Positions 1-10,174 of a stretch of 10,174 bases of DNA are shown one piece after another (within the stretch, counting starts at the first letter, position 1; each line of letters opens with the position of its first letter). This DNA comes from a virus (lineage: Duplodnaviria > Heunggongvirae > Uroviricota > Caudoviricetes). The notes beneath the pieces were generated by a model. That model worked only from the letters and a program-made list of their open reading frames with translations. It was not told the DNA's origin and did no database searches. The DNA is taken from the IMG/VR virus record IMGVR_UViG_2548876862_000020; one strand, written 5' to 3'. A program made the position numbers and the translations under genes.

Positions 1-1251
1 GTGCTTACCGATACAAAATTAAAAAACCTCAAGCCGCAGGACAAACTGTACAAGGTCTCCGATCGTGACGGGCTGTATGTAGCTGTGCTTACGTCAGGCA
101 CGGTCTCGTTTCGCTATGACTACCGTATCAACGGTCGCCGCGAAACACTGGTAATCGGGCAGTATGGGCGTGACGGTATCAGCCTGGCAGAAGCGCGAGA
201 AGAACTGATTGCTGCAAAGAAGCTGCTTAAAGCAGGCCAGTCGCCGGCTGCGGCTAAACGTGACGGTATCAAAAAGATTCGTGGTGCCGAGACGTTTGCG
301 GTACATACCGACAGTTATATGAAACACGTCATCCTGGCTGACAGTACCCGCGCAATGAAGCAGACGGTGATCGACCGTGACATACTTCCGGTTCTTGGCA
401 ACAAAATGATGGCTGAAATTACCACATCGATGGTTCGTGATTTGTGTGACCGGATTGTCGAACGCGGTGGTCGGGCAACAGCAGTACAGGCCAGGGAAAT
501 CATCAGCAGCGTATACCGTCACGCCAATGACCGTGGTCATGGTTTGTTTAATCCTGCGGCTGACATTAAACCTTCGTCTATCGCCATATTTAAACCACGA
601 GAGCGAACACTGACACCAGAAGAAATTGGCCTGTTCTTCCGCACGCTGGATGCCATTGGTGCTATGGGCACTATGAAAATGGCTTTAAAGCTGGTGCTTA
701 TCACTATGGTTCGTAAAGGCGAATTCACCAATGCAACGTGGGATGAAATAGATTTTAAAAAATGGACATGGACAATTCCTTCAGACCGCATGAAGGGAAG
801 CCGGGCGCACGTTATTTACCTGCCTAAACAGGCACAGGATATATTGGTTGGGTTGCAGATGTGCGCTGGTGGAAGTGAATATCTGGTTCCTGGTCGTTAC
901 AATTTTCGGAAGCCATTATCTAATGCCGCGCTGAACTCTCTGATCGACAGAACGGTGAAAATAATAAATGAAGATGGTGAGCATATTCAGGGCTTCACCG
1001 TACACGATATGCGCCGTACAGCCAGTACGTTGTTGCATGAGGCTGGTTATCCTTCAGACTGGATTGAAAAGGCTATGGCACATGAGCAGAAAGGTGTGCG
1101 CGCCGTATATAACAAAGCGGAATACGCCAGACAGCGCGCCTACATGTTGCAGCAGTGGGCCGATATGATTGATTCCTGGATTAACAGGGAGCATACGGAT
1201 CTGATTCCGTTCTCCCCGTCGAAGTTTGAGAAGTGGATGGCGGGGGAATAA
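1..1251 (+). CDS. int: Phage tyrosine integrase, P4/IntA-like family
   Basis: 416-codon ORF from GTG at position 1. C-terminal region shows tyrosine-recombinase signature (MVRKGEF, HDMRRT, VRAVYNKAEY with candidate catalytic Tyr). N-terminus LTDTKLKNLKP resembles P4-type integrases. Start coincides with the window edge, so a few codons may lie upstream. Confidence 0.9.
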   Translation: MLTDTKLKNLKPQDKLYKVSDRDGLYVAVLTSGTVSFRYDYRINGRRETLVIGQYGRDGISLAEAREELIAAKKLLKAGQSPAAAKRDGIKKIRGAETFAVHTDSYMKHVILADSTRAMKQTVIDRDILPVLGNKMMAEITTSMVRDLCDRIVERGGRATAVQAREIISSVYRHANDRGHGLFNPAADIKPSSIAIFKPRERTLTPEEIGLFFRTLDAIGAMGTMKMALKLVLITMVRKGEFTNATWDEIDFKKWTWTIPSDRMKGSRAHVIYLPKQAQDILVGLQMCAGGSEYLVPGRYNFRKPLSNAALNSLIDRTVKIINEDGEHIQGFTVHDMRRTASTLLHEAGYPSDWIEKAMAHEQKGVRAVYNKAEYARQRAYMLQQWADMIDSWINREHTDLIPFSPSKFEKWMAGE

Positions 1252-1254
1252 CGT

Positions 1255-1449
1255 TTAATAGTTCTGCTGATTTTCTTCCATCTCTGCTTCTGCTGCCAGT
1301 GATTCAATTTTGTTTTCGAATATTGCTGACAGTGTTGCAAATTCAGCATCAGTGACAGCGGGAATTGGAACAAACCTGATCCCGCTGTGTGCAAGCATGT
1401 TTGCAGTTTCAAGGCATTTTCTTAAATCTGCTGGTGATGCCCTGTTCAT
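1255..1449 (-). CDS. Hypothetical small acidic protein (64 aa), translationally coupled to the methyltransferase
   Basis: Internal ATG at 1449-1447 of track ORF 1255..1569 overlaps the methyltransferase TGA stop (1448-1446) as ATGA. GGGAG sits 8-9 nt upstream. Stop lies 3 nt from the convergent int stop. The longer 104-aa form would overlap 120 nt of the methyltransferase gene and was not preferred. Confidence 0.5.
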   Translation of the reverse strand: MNRASPADLRKCLETANMLAHSGIRFVPIPAVTDAEFATLSAIFENKIESLAAEAEMEENQQNY

Positions 1450-2096
1450 GCAGCACGCTCCCGCCCCTGGTTGTCTGTTGGTGACAGCGGAGAATTGCTG
1501 AATGCATTTGTTAATCCGCCAATATCCAACGCGTATCCAGGGTGTAGTTGCACTGCCGGGTCTTCGCACTGATTACCCCAAACATCGAAGCCATGAGACG
1601 ACTGGCGGGCGAATAGTTCAATGCGAGAAACATCGCCTAACAATTGCACAAGTTTTTCACGAACGACATCTGGTTTTCTTGAGTGCTCAAGCCGCGGTGC
1701 GGTAAATGACTGAACGATCCCTGCATTAATGCGCGGAGGTAGTTTTCCCTTTACCGCAAACAGGCAATCTTCACTATTGGCGCGAGTCATGTGTCCCATA
1801 CCCATAACCAGTTTATCTGGTTGTCGACTACCACATTTTATCCACGTGAATCCCTTCATGGTCATCAGACGGAATCCCCAGGCTTCAACAACTTTTAGTG
1901 CTTCGAGTGGTTGTGTTGGCACCCACCACATGGCCAACAGACAGTTTTCATCGGCCAAATCCCACACAGGAAGGCGGCAGATATCCAGCACACTCATAAC
2001 CGGATATTTAAAACCGGCACCGCGATTACCATCTGCGGCTTTATCCCGGTATACCCAGGGTGGATCTGCATAGATTAGCGTGTATTTCTTAGTCAT
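1446..2096 (-). CDS. Orphan N6-adenine DNA methyltransferase, MT-A70 family
   Basis: 216-aa ORF with N-terminal IYADPPW (DPPW catalytic motif of MT-A70-type amino-methyltransferases). No adjacent restriction endonuclease gene. Lies in the prophage left arm, as do Dam-like methylases of Stx-type phages. Confidence 0.85.
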   Translation of the reverse strand: MTKKYTLIYADPPWVYRDKAADGNRGAGFKYPVMSVLDICRLPVWDLADENCLLAMWWVPTQPLEALKVVEAWGFRLMTMKGFTWIKCGSRQPDKLVMGMGHMTRANSEDCLFAVKGKLPPRINAGIVQSFTAPRLEHSRKPDVVREKLVQLLGDVSRIELFARQSSHGFDVWGNQCEDPAVQLHPGYALDIGGLTNAFSNSPLSPTDNQGRERAA

Positions 2097-2388
2097 AAAC
2101 CACCCCGCAACATCCTATGCCGCTATAGTCGCCACGGCGAAGGCCGTTACCTTTTGTGATACATTGGTCCCTGCGAACCGCGATCCTTGCACGCTCAACA
2201 TCACCAGAAGCAACATCCATACACTGAAGCCAAAGGTGGGCAGCAATGCGGAACTGCCCTTTTTTCTCTCTTTCAATCGCGCGTTTTTCGATCTCTATCG
2301 CCGCAGGAGTAACGGCAACAACCTTTGAAGGGCTGCGCATTGAAACCTTGTTCATGTGATATTTTTCAAGTCGGCTTAACTTTCTCAC
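2089..2388 (-). CDS. Hypothetical basic protein (99 aa) with C-terminal Cys cluster; first gene of the methyltransferase block
   Basis: ORF with GTG start at 2388 preceded by GAGAGGG. Its 3' end overlaps the methyltransferase start by 8 nt. Arg/Lys-rich, ends in GIGCCGVVYD. Family not recognised with confidence (possibly ANR-like small regulator). Confidence 0.5.
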   Translation of the reverse strand: MRKLSRLEKYHMNKVSMRSPSKVVAVTPAAIEIEKRAIEREKKGQFRIAAHLWLQCMDVASGDVERARIAVRRDQCITKGNGLRRGDYSGIGCCGVVYD

Positions 2389-2497
2389 TTAATCCAACCC
2401 TCTCTGAAAATTAATGCCAGCAGATAAAGCCATGCTGAAACAGAGGCCAGGAATAAGTACCATCCTGACCATTTGCTCCAGTGCCTTAGCAGCACAC

Positions 2498-2746
2498 TCA
2501 TGCCGCGTTGCTCACAGGACGATATACACGTTGCTGAACAGGAGGTTTTTTACCCTGGAACTCTGCCGGGCTTGCTGCCTGACGTTCATCAAGCCAACGC
2601 TCAACTTCATCACGGTTCCATGCGCAGCGTTTGTCAGTGATATACCAGCGTTTAGGAAATTCCCCTGCGCGCTCCATACGGTCGATAGTGCTCCATGACA
2701 GTGGCACCACCGCCAGGAGTTCCTTCTTACCTAATGCACCTTTCAT
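2498..2746 (-). CDS. AlpA-family HTH protein (prophage regulatory / excisionase-like)
   Basis: 82-aa ORF with ATG at 2746 preceded by AGAGAGG. Segment LLAVVPLSWSTIDRMERAGEFPKRWYITDKRCAWNRDEVERW matches the AlpA/Vis-type winged-HTH pattern. Confidence 0.7.
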   Translation of the reverse strand: MKGALGKKELLAVVPLSWSTIDRMERAGEFPKRWYITDKRCAWNRDEVERWLDERQAASPAEFQGKKPPVQQRVYRPVSNAA

Positions 2747-2795
2747 AAATACCTCTCTTGGTTGCAGTGCGGCGCGCGTGGCGCCGCGGTGGTGG

Positions 2796-3677
2796 TTACA
2801 TAGATGTTTCGTTTAATTCTTCCCGACGAACGCTGTAAACGTCGGTGGCTTTTGCCAGCAGTTCGTCATCATCTGAAAGTTTTTGTGCAATGTATTTGTA
2901 AGCCTTATCCAGTTCGGAGACAGTGCTGTAATTCATCGCTGCGCTGGTAAAGGCCATCAGCATTTCTTCTGGATCACGGCTATCCGCTTTACGCGTTTGC
3001 TCATCATGCTTTTTCGCTGGTTTAGCGTTGATCAGACTGTTCATTCCCGCAGCAGTAGTCGTTTGCGGAGTAATGTCTCGCTCAACGCGCGGTGCCGTTT
3101 CCTGTAATTCGTCAGGGGTGTAAACACCGAGAAGCACATCAGGAGCGTGCAGGCGAGCCCATCGTTTCGTGCAAAGATAGGCAAGCTGCTGGCGCGGATC
3201 CTGTTCCCACAATGGAGAGTTACGCACTCCGGCTTGCGCCATACTGATGGTAAGCTCACGGGGTTCTGCTTCTCCTTTAAGAACTGCTGACACAGTTACC
3301 GTCAGATTCGGTGATTTATCTGTTTTGCCGTTAACATTCGACCAGTCACCGCTCCAGCGATAATTCAGGCGTGTCGCTAGCAGGCTGGAAGAGGATACGA
3401 CCGCGTTTACCAACTGTGCTTCGTAGCCTAACGTTCCGTTTACCACATGCGTTTTCTGCGCCACGGCGAAAGGGTTCATTCCCCACTGTGCCGCCTGCAT
3501 GGTCACCGCCAGACAATCGGAAGGTTTGCCTTCAAGATGTTTCGGTACAGTCGCTTTGCTTTGTGACATCAACTCCGCGAAACGCACCAGTTGATTCATG
3601 CCCTCGGGGCTGAAGATTGCCGCAGCAGTGCCTACAGTTGCGCCTGGTTGTGATGTGATTGCGATATCATTGCTCAT
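2796..3677 (-). CDS. recT: RecT/Bet-family single-strand annealing recombinase
   Basis: 293-aa ORF. Segments MQAAQWGMNPF and RVERDITP resemble lambda Bet / RecT. Start ATG overlaps the upstream exonuclease stop as ATGA (3677-3674). Confidence 0.85.
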   Translation of the reverse strand: MSNDIAITSQPGATVGTAAAIFSPEGMNQLVRFAELMSQSKATVPKHLEGKPSDCLAVTMQAAQWGMNPFAVAQKTHVVNGTLGYEAQLVNAVVSSSSLLATRLNYRWSGDWSNVNGKTDKSPNLTVTVSAVLKGEAEPRELTISMAQAGVRNSPLWEQDPRQQLAYLCTKRWARLHAPDVLLGVYTPDELQETAPRVERDITPQTTTAAGMNSLINAKPAKKHDEQTRKADSRDPEEMLMAFTSAAMNYSTVSELDKAYKYIAQKLSDDDELLAKATDVYSVRREELNETSM

Positions 3678-4965: not shown

Positions 4966-5042
4966 TTACCGTTGAGGTAATGATTATGCGTATCTGGTTT
5001 GATGTCAATAGATATGAGTTAAAAAAATTACCCATAAGGTAA
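4966..5042 (-). promoter_or_regulatory. pL-like promoter flanked by two operator palindromes
   Basis: Minus strand reads operator TTACCTTATGGGTAA (5042-5028), 19 bp, -35 TTGACA (5008-5003), 17-bp spacer, -10 AATCAT (4985-4980), operator TTACCTCAACGGTAA (4980-4966). Operator centres are 62 bp apart. Confidence 0.6.
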
Positions 5043-8556: not shown

Positions 8557-9036
8557 ATGGAAAGTAATATCAAAGGGTTAGTTTCCGCCGGGCATGAGAT
8601 GGCTTCGGAACTGAAAGCAGAATGTGGTGCCGTTGATATGCGTAATGTGGCAAAGCTGCTCAGCGATTTTGCAACGCAACTGGAAGTGCAACTGGTGCGT
8701 GCTAATGCGCTGGCGGCGGAGAATGCGGGGCTGAAGTCTGGCGCTATGGACGAAATCAAGGTTATCAACCGTGGAGGTCAGGCATATTGCGTAAAAGATG
8801 GAGTGCAAGTTAATCCCATGTATGCAAGAGGGTGGAATGACTATCGCGCAAAGTCTCTGCAATCAGACACCCCAGCCACCGATGCTTTCCTGGCTGAAAT
8901 TGAACGCAAAGCAATCCGCAAGTTCATTAACAGCATTGAACACATCCTGCGTGACAAGTTGTCACCGTATGACACCGAAGAGATGCTTGAGGCTATGCGT
9001 ATTTTTCTGGAAGAACAGGGAGGCGAGCAAAAATGA
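8557..9036 (+). CDS. Hypothetical protein (159 aa)
   Basis: ATG 8557 preceded by GTGAGGG at 5 nt (track start 8545 is the GTG inside this SD). Stop overlaps the next start as ATGA (9033-9036). Confidence 0.55.
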   Translation: MESNIKGLVSAGHEMASELKAECGAVDMRNVAKLLSDFATQLEVQLVRANALAAENAGLKSGAMDEIKVINRGGQAYCVKDGVQVNPMYARGWNDYRAKSLQSDTPATDAFLAEIERKAIRKFINSIEHILRDKLSPYDTEEMLEAMRIFLEEQGGEQK

Positions 9037-9347
9037 CAATCACAAAACAACGAGTAGAAAAAATCATATATCGCCATGAAATGGGACTGAACAGCGATGT
9101 CACTGCCGAAGAGGTTTATGACCTGGCTGTACTGGCGCTGAATTTATCAAATATCGCAAATCTGAAGCGATACGAGCTTGATATGGGAGGTTGTGACTCA
9201 TGCGGTCAGGATTGTGGCGCTGACATGACTGAAGATTCTGATGGCAATTATGTCCTGTTTGATGACGTGGTTAAGTTGTTTGAGTTTGATACAACCACTC
9301 GGAAGCTAGAAAGCCCAGCAAAGGAGGCAACCAGTGAGCAAGATTGA
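9033..9347 (+). CDS. Hypothetical protein (104 aa) with C-x2-C-x3-C motif
   Basis: ORF coupled to the upstream gene by ATGA. Contains GGCDSCGQDCG and an acidic tail. 3' end overlaps the next gene by 14 nt. Confidence 0.5.
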   Translation: MTITKQRVEKIIYRHEMGLNSDVTAEEVYDLAVLALNLSNIANLKRYELDMGGCDSCGQDCGADMTEDSDGNYVLFDDVVKLFEFDTTTRKLESPAKEATSEQD

Positions 9348-9912
9348 CTATCAGGCGCTGCGTGAGGCAGCAGAACGTGCAATTCCGGCAATGGAACGCC
9401 TGTTAATGTTGCCAGTTGATGATGATTTGTTAAGTGAACAGGAACTTAAAGATTACGGTGTGGATATTGATGCGCTCAACGCCTTCAAATTTCTGACCGG
9501 ACCAGAAACCGTGCTGGCACTACTGGATGAACTGGAAAGAAACCAGCAATACATAAAACGCCGCGATCAGGAGAACGAGGAAATTGCGCTAACGGTAGGG
9601 AAGCTGCGTGTTGAGCTGGAAGCCGCAGAGAAGCGCATTGCAGAACTGGAAGCACGGGAAATAAAACCAGCCAAAGGCGAAGTTCTTGTCGTTGTTTCTG
9701 GTTTTACTGGTTGCGGAAAAAGCGCCATTGCCGGGGAAATAGAAATCGCGATGAAGGCTATTGGTGTACCGGTTAAGTGGACTAATGGCGATGCAGAAAA
9801 GCGCATGACTGGCGCTGACTGGCTGACAGCAATTGAGATGTACAAACCAACTGTGCGCATTGTGGAAGTTAATGTGCCACGCGTCGCTGGCATTCGCATC
9901 AAAGGAGAGTGA
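9334..9912 (+). CDS. Ead/Ea22-like family protein (coiled-coil)
   Basis: GTG 9334 preceded by AAGGAGG at 6 nt. N-terminal IDYQALREAAERA, then VLALLDELE and KRIAELE, match the recalled Ea22-like pattern. Confidence 0.6.
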   Translation: MSKIDYQALREAAERAIPAMERLLMLPVDDDLLSEQELKDYGVDIDALNAFKFLTGPETVLALLDELERNQQYIKRRDQENEEIALTVGKLRVELEAAEKRIAELEAREIKPAKGEVLVVVSGFTGCGKSAIAGEIEIAMKAIGVPVKWTNGDAEKRMTGADWLTAIEMYKPTVRIVEVNVPRVAGIRIKGE

Positions 9913-9913
9913 C

Positions 9914-10174
9914 GTGGAAATAAATCCAGAAGATGAGTTAAGTAATATTGTTTTATTTCCGGTAAAAGAGGATGACCCACGTAATCAGGTTAATTTTCTT
10001 TATGAGCCATCGGAAAGACCATACTGCCATCACGCTTCTGTCCGGGTTGACGAAAAAGAGCGTCAGGTCCGCTGTAAAAACTGCGGTGCAGTTGTGGAGC
10101 CGTTTGACTGGATGCTCTCAGTGGCGAAAAGAGAAACCAGACTGGCAGATGATGTAAGGCTATTGCGCCAGGAG
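9914..10174 (+). CDS. 3'-truncated ORF missing from the ORF track, Cys/His-containing unknown protein
   Basis: Open frame from GTG 9914 to window end (87 codons, no stop). AAGGAG at 9901-9906, 7 nt upstream. Translation VEINPEDELSNIVLFPVKEDDPRNQVNFLYEPSERPYCHHASVRVDEKERQVRCKNCGAVVEPFDWMLSVAKRETRLADDVRLLRQE. Alternative in-frame ATG at 9872 is possible. Confidence 0.5.
   Translation, partial: MEINPEDELSNIVLFPVKEDDPRNQVNFLYEPSERPYCHHASVRVDEKERQVRCKNCGAVVEPFDWMLSVAKRETRLADDVRLLRQE

Follow-up and report, generated by a model that had tools for sequence, protein, structure and literature searches.

A prophage early gene behind the Ea22-like gene encodes a predicted zinc-ribbon and long-helix protein of PHROG 1621

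Ea22 is tetrameric and pro-lysogenic (PMC10834534, PMC7093339). All Ea22 proteins are reported to end in K/R-G-E, a motif whose significance was given as unknown by Dydecka et al. 2020 (PMC7093339) and which is not addressed by Goddard et al. (PMC10834534). Lambda Ea8.5, whose gene is transcribed after ea22, is described as having a hybrid homeodomain/zinc-finger fold (cited in PMC7093339). Here we describe what stands behind an Ea22-like gene in another phage element, of which a stretch of 10,174 nucleotides (the window) was analyzed. An initial annotation had proposed that the frame running from a GTG at 9914 to the window end is a real but truncated gene. Our analysis bears this out: positions 9914 to 10174 cover the first three-quarters of a genuine early gene on which purifying selection acts. 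The gene was already known, being annotated in public genomes as a hypothetical protein, and it is ordinary and common. The interest lies in the description of its family and in an explanation of the Ea22 tail, and not in the existence of the gene. The features of the locus are collected in Table 1.

Table 1. Positions of the PHROG 1621 gene, its putative domains, and neighboring features in the window
Feature	Position	Strand	Basis
ead/Ea22-like gene, upstream, 192 aa	9334..9912	+	Pfam PF13935, E=1.9e-31; same name in related records
Junction GCTGGCATTCGCATCAAAGGAGAG TGA, encoding A-G-I-R-I-K-G-E-stop of the Ea22-like protein	9886..9912	+	3' end of lambda ea22 identical
Shine-Dalgarno sequence AAGGAG, within the last Ea22-like codons	9902..9907	+	Sequence; junction conservation
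GTG start codon	9914..9916	+	Aligned start in related junctions and in distant homologs
Zinc-ribbon/long-helix gene (PHROG 1621), first 87 of 118 codons	9914..10174	+	Translation; identity to WP_033873273.1
Predicted zinc-ribbon domain, residues ~37-65, with conserved R50 and [DE]-P-F-D cap	10022..10108	+	AF2, Pfam, Foldseek
Putative metal-ligand codons: C38 10025-10027, H40 10031-10033, C54 10073-10075, C57 10082-10084	10025..10084	+	Conservation
Predicted long C-terminal helix, first 25 residues (63-117 in the full protein)	10100..10174	+	AF2; hydrophobic periodicity
Track ORF, rejected as artifact	9972..10157	+	pN/pS of 6.18; 3.9 stops per homologous copy
Track ORF, rejected as artifact; antisense to the Ea22-like gene and the start of the PHROG 1621 gene	9567..9980	-	pN/pS of 2.78 over the overlap

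The Ea22-like ORF at 9334..9912 (Pfam PF13935, 109.9 bits against a cutoff of 27, E=1.9e-31) ends in ATC AAA GGA GAG TGA, with its stop codon at 9910-9912. The consensus Shine-Dalgarno (SD) sequence is as well spaced as had been claimed, since AAGGAG at 9902-9907 is followed after 6 nt by the GTG, which itself stands 1 nt (a C) past the Ea22-like TGA. AAGGAG occurs three times in the window, with 3.96 occurrences expected, so there is no excess over chance. Because two of the three copies precede start codons, lying 6 to 7 nt ahead of the starts at 9334 and 9914, the evidential weight of the motif comes from its position and not from its frequency. Read from 9914 to 10174, the frame has 87 sense codons and zero stops (VEINPEDELSNIVLFPVKEDDPRNQVNFLYEPSERPYCHHASVRVDEKERQVRCKNCGAVVEPFDWMLSVAKRETRLADDVRLLRQE). 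The frame is open from 9914 onward, as stated in the initial annotation, but it opens earlier than was described there: the preceding in-frame stop is at 9824-9826, the open stretch begins at 9827, and an in-frame ATG is present at 9872.

We compared the junction with those of related loci, which were collected with an 8-sequence alignment. Of 92 related junctions, 85 have ATG as the start codon at the position equivalent to 9914, and the other 7 have GTG. In the ATG junctions, the start lies within ...AAAGGAGAGGAGCATG, where the Ea22 stop is lost, Ea22 gains eight extra codons, and the two genes overlap by 23 nt. The form seen in the window, ...AAAGGAGAGTGACGTG, is thus the minority form (7/92). 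None of the 92 junctions departs from the string AAAGGAGA, which includes the AAGGAG SD, and 87 of them have AAAGGAGAG. M1 is at least 90% conserved in a 50-sequence alignment of relatives, the M1 of distant homologs aligns at 9914, and the 9914-type start is the sole start common to loci with at least eight unrelated upstream modules. The start at 9914 is favored over ATG 9872 because it is the only one common to all loci and because distant homologs begin there.

In every RefSeq or GenBank record inspected, a "hypothetical protein" coding sequence (CDS) of 118 to 119 aa stands right after the ead/Ea22-like gene or slightly overlaps it. Homologous CDSs include WP_032206196.1 in an O111:H2 plasmid-prophage and a poultry strain, URC08890.1 in phage vB_EcoS-689R5, WP_000403779.1 in strain 90-3040, YP_009907882.1 in Stx phage ArgO145, and WP_033873273.1 in strain AREA_497. 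Residues 1 to 87 of the last protein are identical to those encoded in the window, including an unusual N56. The AREA_497 locus (L014) is 99.6% identical at the DNA level, and because its gene is 357 nt long, the stop of the window gene is placed near 10270. The last 31 codons (...EQERRKNIEKLIQIERNAKARIRRATKSRTE), including a basic motif, lie outside the window and were taken from this 99.6%-identical locus. The region was found repeatedly by megablast in complete E. coli genomes and phages, and the 261 nt are present in 1679 of 5426 complete E. coli genomes (~31%), always under a "hypothetical protein" feature.

To assess selection, we compared 43 distinct copies of the 261 nt, drawn from the collected loci. 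In the candidate frame, 34 of the 46 variable sites fall on third codon positions, with a pN/pS of 0.06 and no stop in any of the 43 copies. In the same copies, the frame of the plus-strand track ORF 9972..10157 has a pN/pS of 6.18 and ~3.9 stops per copy, and that of the minus-strand track ORF 9567..9980 has a pN/pS of 2.78 and stops in homologous copies. Neither ORF is annotated in any related record examined. The initial annotation had suspected both of being artifacts, which agrees with these results, and it had named conservation of one of them in place of the 9914 frame as evidence against the gene; what the 43 copies clearly show is conservation of the 9914 frame. Both track ORFs at the locus should be discarded, and real genes can be missed when an ORF track omits frames that are still open at the edge of a window. 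The antisense in-phase frame was also considered as a gene and rejected, its pN/pS of 0.08 being the expected mirror of the sense frame and its stops numbering 4.3 per copy. All 92 of 92 full-length copies are intact, with 118 or 119 codons.

Synteny with E. coli 90-3040 (L004) identifies the element as a lambdoid prophage inserted beside guaA. In the 90-3040-type order, the integrase stands at the left end and is followed by a leftward early operon (RecT, a PD-(D/E)XK nuclease, and others). Then come the repressor, cro, DnaT-like and P replication genes, DUF1064, and two hypothetical genes, and the order ends with the Ea22-like gene, the PHROG 1621 gene, about a dozen small genes (DUF4014, DUF551, ASCH, and hypotheticals), and terminase. 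The PHROG 1621 gene is placed in the rightward operon, past the replication genes and directly behind the ead/Ea22-like gene. The genes of this operon abut or overlap, and no promoter-like or terminator-like site beyond chance was found between them. In Stx phage ArgO145, the pair of Ea22-like and PHROG 1621 genes lies in the leftward exo-to-int region instead. A 32%-identical homolog in Enterobacter phage Tyrion stands directly behind an Ead/Ea22-like gene, a distant relative in a Klebsiella phage is located between ninG and ylcG/Q without Ea22, and one in a Hafnia phage follows the replication genes, also without Ea22. Around the distant relatives lie series of small early genes, among which no constant partner gene was found. 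PAPS-reductase-like genes recur near relatives, inconsistently.

The K-G-E codons of the window's Ea22-like gene, AAA GGA GAG, double as the SD for the gene that follows. Lambda ea22 has the same 3' sequence (GCTGGCATTCGCATCAAAGGAGAGTGA), yet nothing comes after it for 191 nt. At least eight unrelated Ea22 C-terminal modules are found upstream of the PHROG 1621 gene, and all of them end in A-G-I-(R/H)-I-K-G-E. Among 41 distinct Ea22 C-terminal variants, sampled without bias, 23 have the K-G-E end. In 22 of these 23, TGA-N-ATG comes next and opens one of no fewer than 10 different genes. Tails without K-G-E spell SD-like strings before an overlapping or adjacent start (e.g., CAGGAGGTTAATTGATG, GGAGGTGAGTAGTG, and AAGGGGAATTAGGGATATG). 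Read most simply, the constraint on the Ea22 tail would fall on its nucleotides, which would form a coupling SD and also mark a module boundary, and the conserved 24-nt junction may in addition be a boundary at which recombination exchanges cassettes. The K/R-G-E tail of Ea22 thereby gains a simple candidate explanation, namely, the SD of whichever coupled gene lies downstream. For the window, we infer from the layout that translation of the 9914 gene is most likely coupled to that of the Ea22-like gene, because the SD lies in the last Ea22 codons and the start is 1 nt past the stop.

The initial annotation had recommended homology and structure-prediction searches. The window fragment belongs to PHROG 1621 (E=4e-39, residues 1-87 against positions 1-90 of the 134 in the profile), to which a full-length copy matches with an E value of 9e-57. 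PHROGs 8538 and 4865, which like PHROG 1621 are of unknown function, were matched more weakly, and 50 of 50 diverse relatives match the same three PHROGs. No Pfam or NCBIfam model reached threshold with the fragment, the full-length copies, or the 50 relatives. Against the anti-phage defense profiles of PADLOC-DB, P0010 and P0046 had no match at E<=0.1, and P0115 and P0123 had weak matches of coiled-coil type in the helix region (PbeC best, E=0.0013; also LmuB and Cas5b). A word-indexed search returned 104 close relatives, and a profile run exhaustively against 1.84 billion cluster representatives returned 1027 clusters at E<=1e-3, of which 112 were at E<=1e-10. Using tblastn, relatives at 31-44% identity were found in temperate phages of Klebsiella, Serratia, Enterobacter, Hafnia, Providencia, Cronobacter, and Morganella. 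In all sources, the family members are named "hypothetical" or "bacteriophage protein." Ten longer relatives carry no extra Pfam domain and no informative fusion, and searches by accession numbers, PHROG id, architecture, and context found no literature on the protein.

In the 50-sequence alignment, C54 and C57 are invariant; C38, H40, R50, L98, and K106 are at least 90% conserved; and H39 is variable. C-H-H (residues 38-40, nt 10025-10033) and C-K-N-C-G (residues 54-58, nt 10073-10087) had been put forward as a possible zinc-binding pair. Conservation retains C38, H40, C54, and C57 from that proposal and removes H39, so that C38-x-H40 with C54-x2-C57 is the conserved, predicted zinc-ligand set. 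The neighboring 9033..9347 product does contain the C-x2-C-x3-C motif that had been noticed, reading C-D-S-C-G-Q-D-C; the hinted kinship between the two Cys proteins found no support, the neighbor belonging to another PHROG (3126).

Further signatures were derived from a 103-sequence alignment, which was pre-filtered for the Cys/His core, so its 100% ligand values are partly by construction. The N terminus reads M-(S/T)-(D/E), followed by N-[IV]-[IV]-x-F-P, and the ribbon reads C-x-H-x2-[VI]-x-[VIL]-D-E-x2-R-x-[VLI]-x-C-x2-C-G-x2-[ILV]-[DE]-P-F-D. The family consensus has hydrophobic positions 3-4 apart from 67 to 112, and the C-terminal signature is L98-[KR]-[RK]-E-E-[RK]-N-x-K-A-R-[LI]-[RK]-[RN]-A. 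N104, K106, A107, and R108 are conserved at 72-81%. The conserved basic motif at the helix end, E-R-N-x-K-A-R-I/L-R-R-A, lies past the window end. Residues 1-36 carry a net charge of -6 and residues 99-118 one of +5. A reading of N-I-V-x-F-P as a beta-clamp-binding motif or SSB tip was dropped, as the family varies at the fourth position of the motif.

An AF2 model of the monomer, built from the 50-sequence alignment, has a mean pLDDT of 82, with low confidence for residues 1-36. Strands were modeled at 43-46 and 51-54 with a bridge at 60-61, the ribbon element being short and sparsely resolved, and a single helix spans 63-117 at a pLDDT of 92-97. The 118-aa product is accordingly modeled as an acidic low-confidence tail of ~36 residues, a small zinc ribbon, and a ~55-residue helix. 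In the helix core of the E. coli protein, E74, E88, and E102 occupy 'a' positions and R91 a 'd' position. From the sequences, a homomeric coiled coil is plausible for the family and not assured for the E. coli member. A sequence search of the complete set of PDB chains with the family profile gave coiled-coil noise only (best E=0.015), and the fold search gave no matching solved structure, the best Foldseek match being 1pft at E=0.3. A concrete description of PHROG 1621 can now be given: a predicted CHCC zinc ribbon and long helix, with a basic motif that is conserved. With about a thousand clusters at 50% identity and no Pfam model, it is a tractable target for functional studies of the "dark matter" of the exo-xis and nin regions. 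That the locus is a conserved gene of this ribbon-plus-helix family is almost certain. The explanation as a whole, in which a real prophage early gene encodes a ribbon and helix protein, is very probable.

Other explanations of the frame fare less well. Were it a decaying remnant, or were an overlapping track ORF the real gene, one could point to the fact that the frame has no stop in the window and starts with the minority GTG. This is scarcely credible in view of the pN/pS of 0.06 in this frame versus 6.18 and 2.78 in the rival frames with their stops, the intactness of all 92 full-length copies, and the identity of the 87 aa to an annotated intact CDS; the track-ORF version is already refuted by the selection test. 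A 132-aa product starting at the in-frame ATG 9872 (MCHASLAFASKESDV-EINPEDEL...) instead of GTG 9914 is very improbable as well. Although the open stretch begins at 9827 and starts of this type appear in several public gene calls (P0004, P0013, and P0025; 132 aa in P0004 and P0025), there is no SD ahead of 9872, whereas AAGGAG precedes 9914 by 6 nt, and PGAP/RefSeq calls the form of 118-119 aa. The extension would lie inside Ea22 C-terminal modules that differ among loci and is hence unconserved, and distant homologs begin at the position aligned with 9914.

The close association with Ea22 raises another explanation, that the protein is an Ea22 partner or a detachable C-terminal module of it, whose helix would dock on the tetrameric coiled coil of Ea22 and share in its pro-lysogenic activity. 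The reported tetrameric state and pro-lysogenic role of Ea22 fit this idea, as does the position of the gene directly behind the Ea22 junction in 93 of 93 E. coli-type loci and that of the homolog behind an Ead/Ea22-like gene in Tyrion, and the 1-nt gap between stop and start is a layout typical of coupled subunits. In-frame Ea22::zinc-ribbon fusions also recur with three different Ea22 N-terminal modules (P0287, P0288, and P0292), all joined at ...AELEAREIKPEDELSNIV / ...AELEAREIKPEDEL. These fusions are rare, however (clusters of 1-2 members), and because they are rare and have one common junction at a short EIKP repeat, they may stem from a single deletion. Moreover, the PHROG 1621 gene was found in 0 of 80 Ea22 loci chosen solely by similarity to the Ea22 N terminus. 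In one such case (L108), the Ea22 has 192 aa like that of the window, is 95% identical to it over the N-terminal 109 aa, differs in the C-terminal 60 aa, and keeps the AGIRIKGE tail, but a different gene comes next. Distant family members exist without Ea22, and the Ea22 C-terminal modules upstream of the gene are mutually unrelated. A partnership with Ea22 is therefore unlikely. The gene is instead probably one of many interchangeable cassettes behind a conserved Ea22 junction that precedes 10 or more different genes, rather than a dedicated partner of Ea22.

Because no solved structure or characterized family matches the protein, we can only infer its function. The long helix might mediate self-association as a coiled coil, and the ribbon and the basic helix end might form a bipartite surface gripping nucleic acid or a host protein. 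The protein could then act as a small accessory regulator or inhibitor in early development, a role that would resemble those of other exo-xis and nin-region accessory genes. Such an oligomeric binder with an accessory regulatory or inhibitory function is a tentative proposal, possible but not probable. It is quite doubtful that the protein represents an unrecognized class of small phage regulators, in which a zipper-like dimer with a reversed-bZIP basic end and a CHCC ribbon would act, in E. coli prophages, with the tetrameric Ea22 scaffold. If such a class were real, its members would hold on to DNA or RNA or obstruct a host enzyme that works on nucleic acid, and those in E. coli prophages would influence the lysis-lysogeny decision. 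The recurrent in-frame Ea22 fusions hint at an action of this putative class through Ea22.

Several known proteins resemble the PHROG 1621 protein in part. Lambda Ea8.5 is likewise a small Cys/His protein whose gene lies in a lambdoid accessory region behind ea22, and it contains C-R-H-H. However, that gene lies 191 nt past ea22 with its own SD, and the architecture predicted for Ea8.5 differs. Homology to Ea8.5 was tried and rejected, as hhalign against the 50-sequence alignment gave a probability of 1.7% over 11 aligned columns, and the two are unrelated. The replication controller YabA, a small protein made of a coiled coil and a zinc module, can be likened to the PHROG 1621 protein in architecture. 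Bacterial proteins of the COG1579 type, such as MSMEG_4306 (PMC5947703), are likewise small and pair an oligomerizing helix with a single Cys/His zinc module. In both the COG1579 type and YabA, however, the zinc module is C-terminal, so the order is reversed relative to the PHROG 1621 protein. Similarity to the YabA N-domain (5dol) is confined to a generic coiled-coil segment (E=0.11), and there is no Pfam match. The DksA/TraR C4 zinc finger (lambda Orf73-like) was considered and rejected, being absent from the Pfam matches of the fragment, a full-length copy, and the 50 relatives even at E<=1. DksA/TraR proteins have a coiled-coil hairpin before the zinc finger, whereas the PHROG 1621 protein is predicted to have a ribbon and then a single helix. 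In comparison with bZIP DNA binders, the modeled order is reversed, the conserved basic end lying C-terminal to the putative zipper.

The TFIIB/TFB ribbon (PF08271 Zn_Ribbon_TF, 1pft) shares with the predicted structure a beta zinc ribbon with two knuckles and four conserved Cys/His ligands. PF08271 is the best Pfam match, below threshold at 26.8 bits for the fragment against a cutoff of 29 and at 20.5-21.5 bits for full-length copies, and 11 of 50 family members match it at E<0.01. The top Foldseek match to 1pft has E=0.3, a probability of 0.82, and a TM score of 0.45 normalized on the target. The first knuckle of the PHROG 1621 protein is C-x-H rather than C-x2-C/H, and a single long helix follows the ribbon in place of the B-reader, linker, and cyclin core of TFIIB. 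The resemblance of the predicted ribbon to that of TFIIB is one of fold class, not of family.

The window's junction between the Ea22-like and zinc-ribbon genes, TGA-C-GTG, is a minority form among the 92 junctions in the related loci L001 to L095. In 85 of them, GAG stands in place of the Ea22 stop TGA and the zinc-ribbon gene starts with ATG (GAGGAGCATG). Ea22 in this form extends eight codons further (..KGEEHGNKTRR), which gives a 23-nt overlap with the zinc-ribbon gene.

A short direct repeat encoding E-I-K/N-P was also found (window about 9655-9675 and 9914-9930). One copy closes the Ea22 coiled coil (AELEAREIKPAKGE), and the other opens the zinc-ribbon gene (V-E-I-N-P-E-D-E-L). In rare, naturally occurring in-frame fusions, Ea22 and the zinc-ribbon protein are joined exactly at this repeat (...AELEAREIKPEDELSNIV), and the Escherichia marmotae fusion (P0287) corresponds to the window's Ea22 with the P-loop-like module precisely excised. 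That C-terminal module carries a Walker-A-like motif, V-V-V-S-G-F-T-G-C-G-K-S, and gave weak APS-kinase/AAA_16 matches (E about 0.05-0.09). A complete P-loop NTPase domain would not fit in the module's roughly 80 residues. Within the N-terminal tail of the zinc-ribbon protein, the short N-[IV]-[IV]-x-F-P at residues 11-16 is kept family-wide and looks like a linear interaction motif.

The 9033-9347 product matches PHROG 3126 (E=5.9e-63), a family without described function, had no match in Pfam, and is unrelated to the zinc-ribbon family. In Stx phage ArgO145, in Enterobacter phage Tyrion, and on a metagenomic contig, the first or second gene upstream of the zinc-ribbon gene is PAPS-reductase-like; on the metagenomic contig it directly overlaps the start of the zinc-ribbon homologue. 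This neighbor is not constant across the family. The enterobacterial-prophage zinc-ribbon gene is also present in records bearing unrelated taxon names, which are most likely mis-binned or contaminating contigs rather than true host range.

Features and records of the zinc-ribbon gene, its neighbors, and its relatives
Feature	Record	Position	Strand	Remark
Cys protein	window	9033-9347		104 aa; C-D-S-C-G-Q-D-C (C-x2-C-x3-C)
Ea22-like C-terminal module	window	9660-9912	+	residues about 110-192
Ea22/zinc-ribbon junction	window	9886-9916	+	tail codons, stop, start
N-terminal tail	window	9914-10021	+	residues 1-36; acidic, low confidence
GAG/ATG junction	L004 (E. coli 90-3040)	15306-15328
GAG/ATG junction	L096 (ArgO145)	5001-5023
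PAPS-reductase-like gene	L096	2745-3623
PAPS-reductase-like gene	L099 (Tyrion)	662-1624
PAPS-reductase-like gene	L101 (metagenomic contig)	491-1543
Repeat/fusion proteins	P0287, P0288, P0289, P0290, P0292
Near-identical copy	L009			MAG "Collinsella sp.," 3030-nt scaffold
Near-identical copy	L011			"Ursidibacter maritimus," 233-nt contig
Near-identical copy	P0239			"Campylobacter sp."
Copy solely by membership of Citrobacter/Klebsiella-type cluster	P0279			"Clostridiales bacterium" MAG

The K/R-G-E tail of Ea22 proteins has been described as "of unknown significance" (PMC7093339). A candidate explanation is that the codons of the K-G-E tail, AAA GGA GAG, serve as a Shine-Dalgarno sequence for any downstream gene. 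Among the Ea22 loci L106 to L185, 23 of the 41 C-terminal variants end in K-G-E, and TGA-N-ATG directly follows the tail in 22 of these 23, where it begins at least 10 different genes. The identical 27-nt ea22 end is kept in lambda (L015 1348-1375, minus strand), even though no gene directly follows it there.
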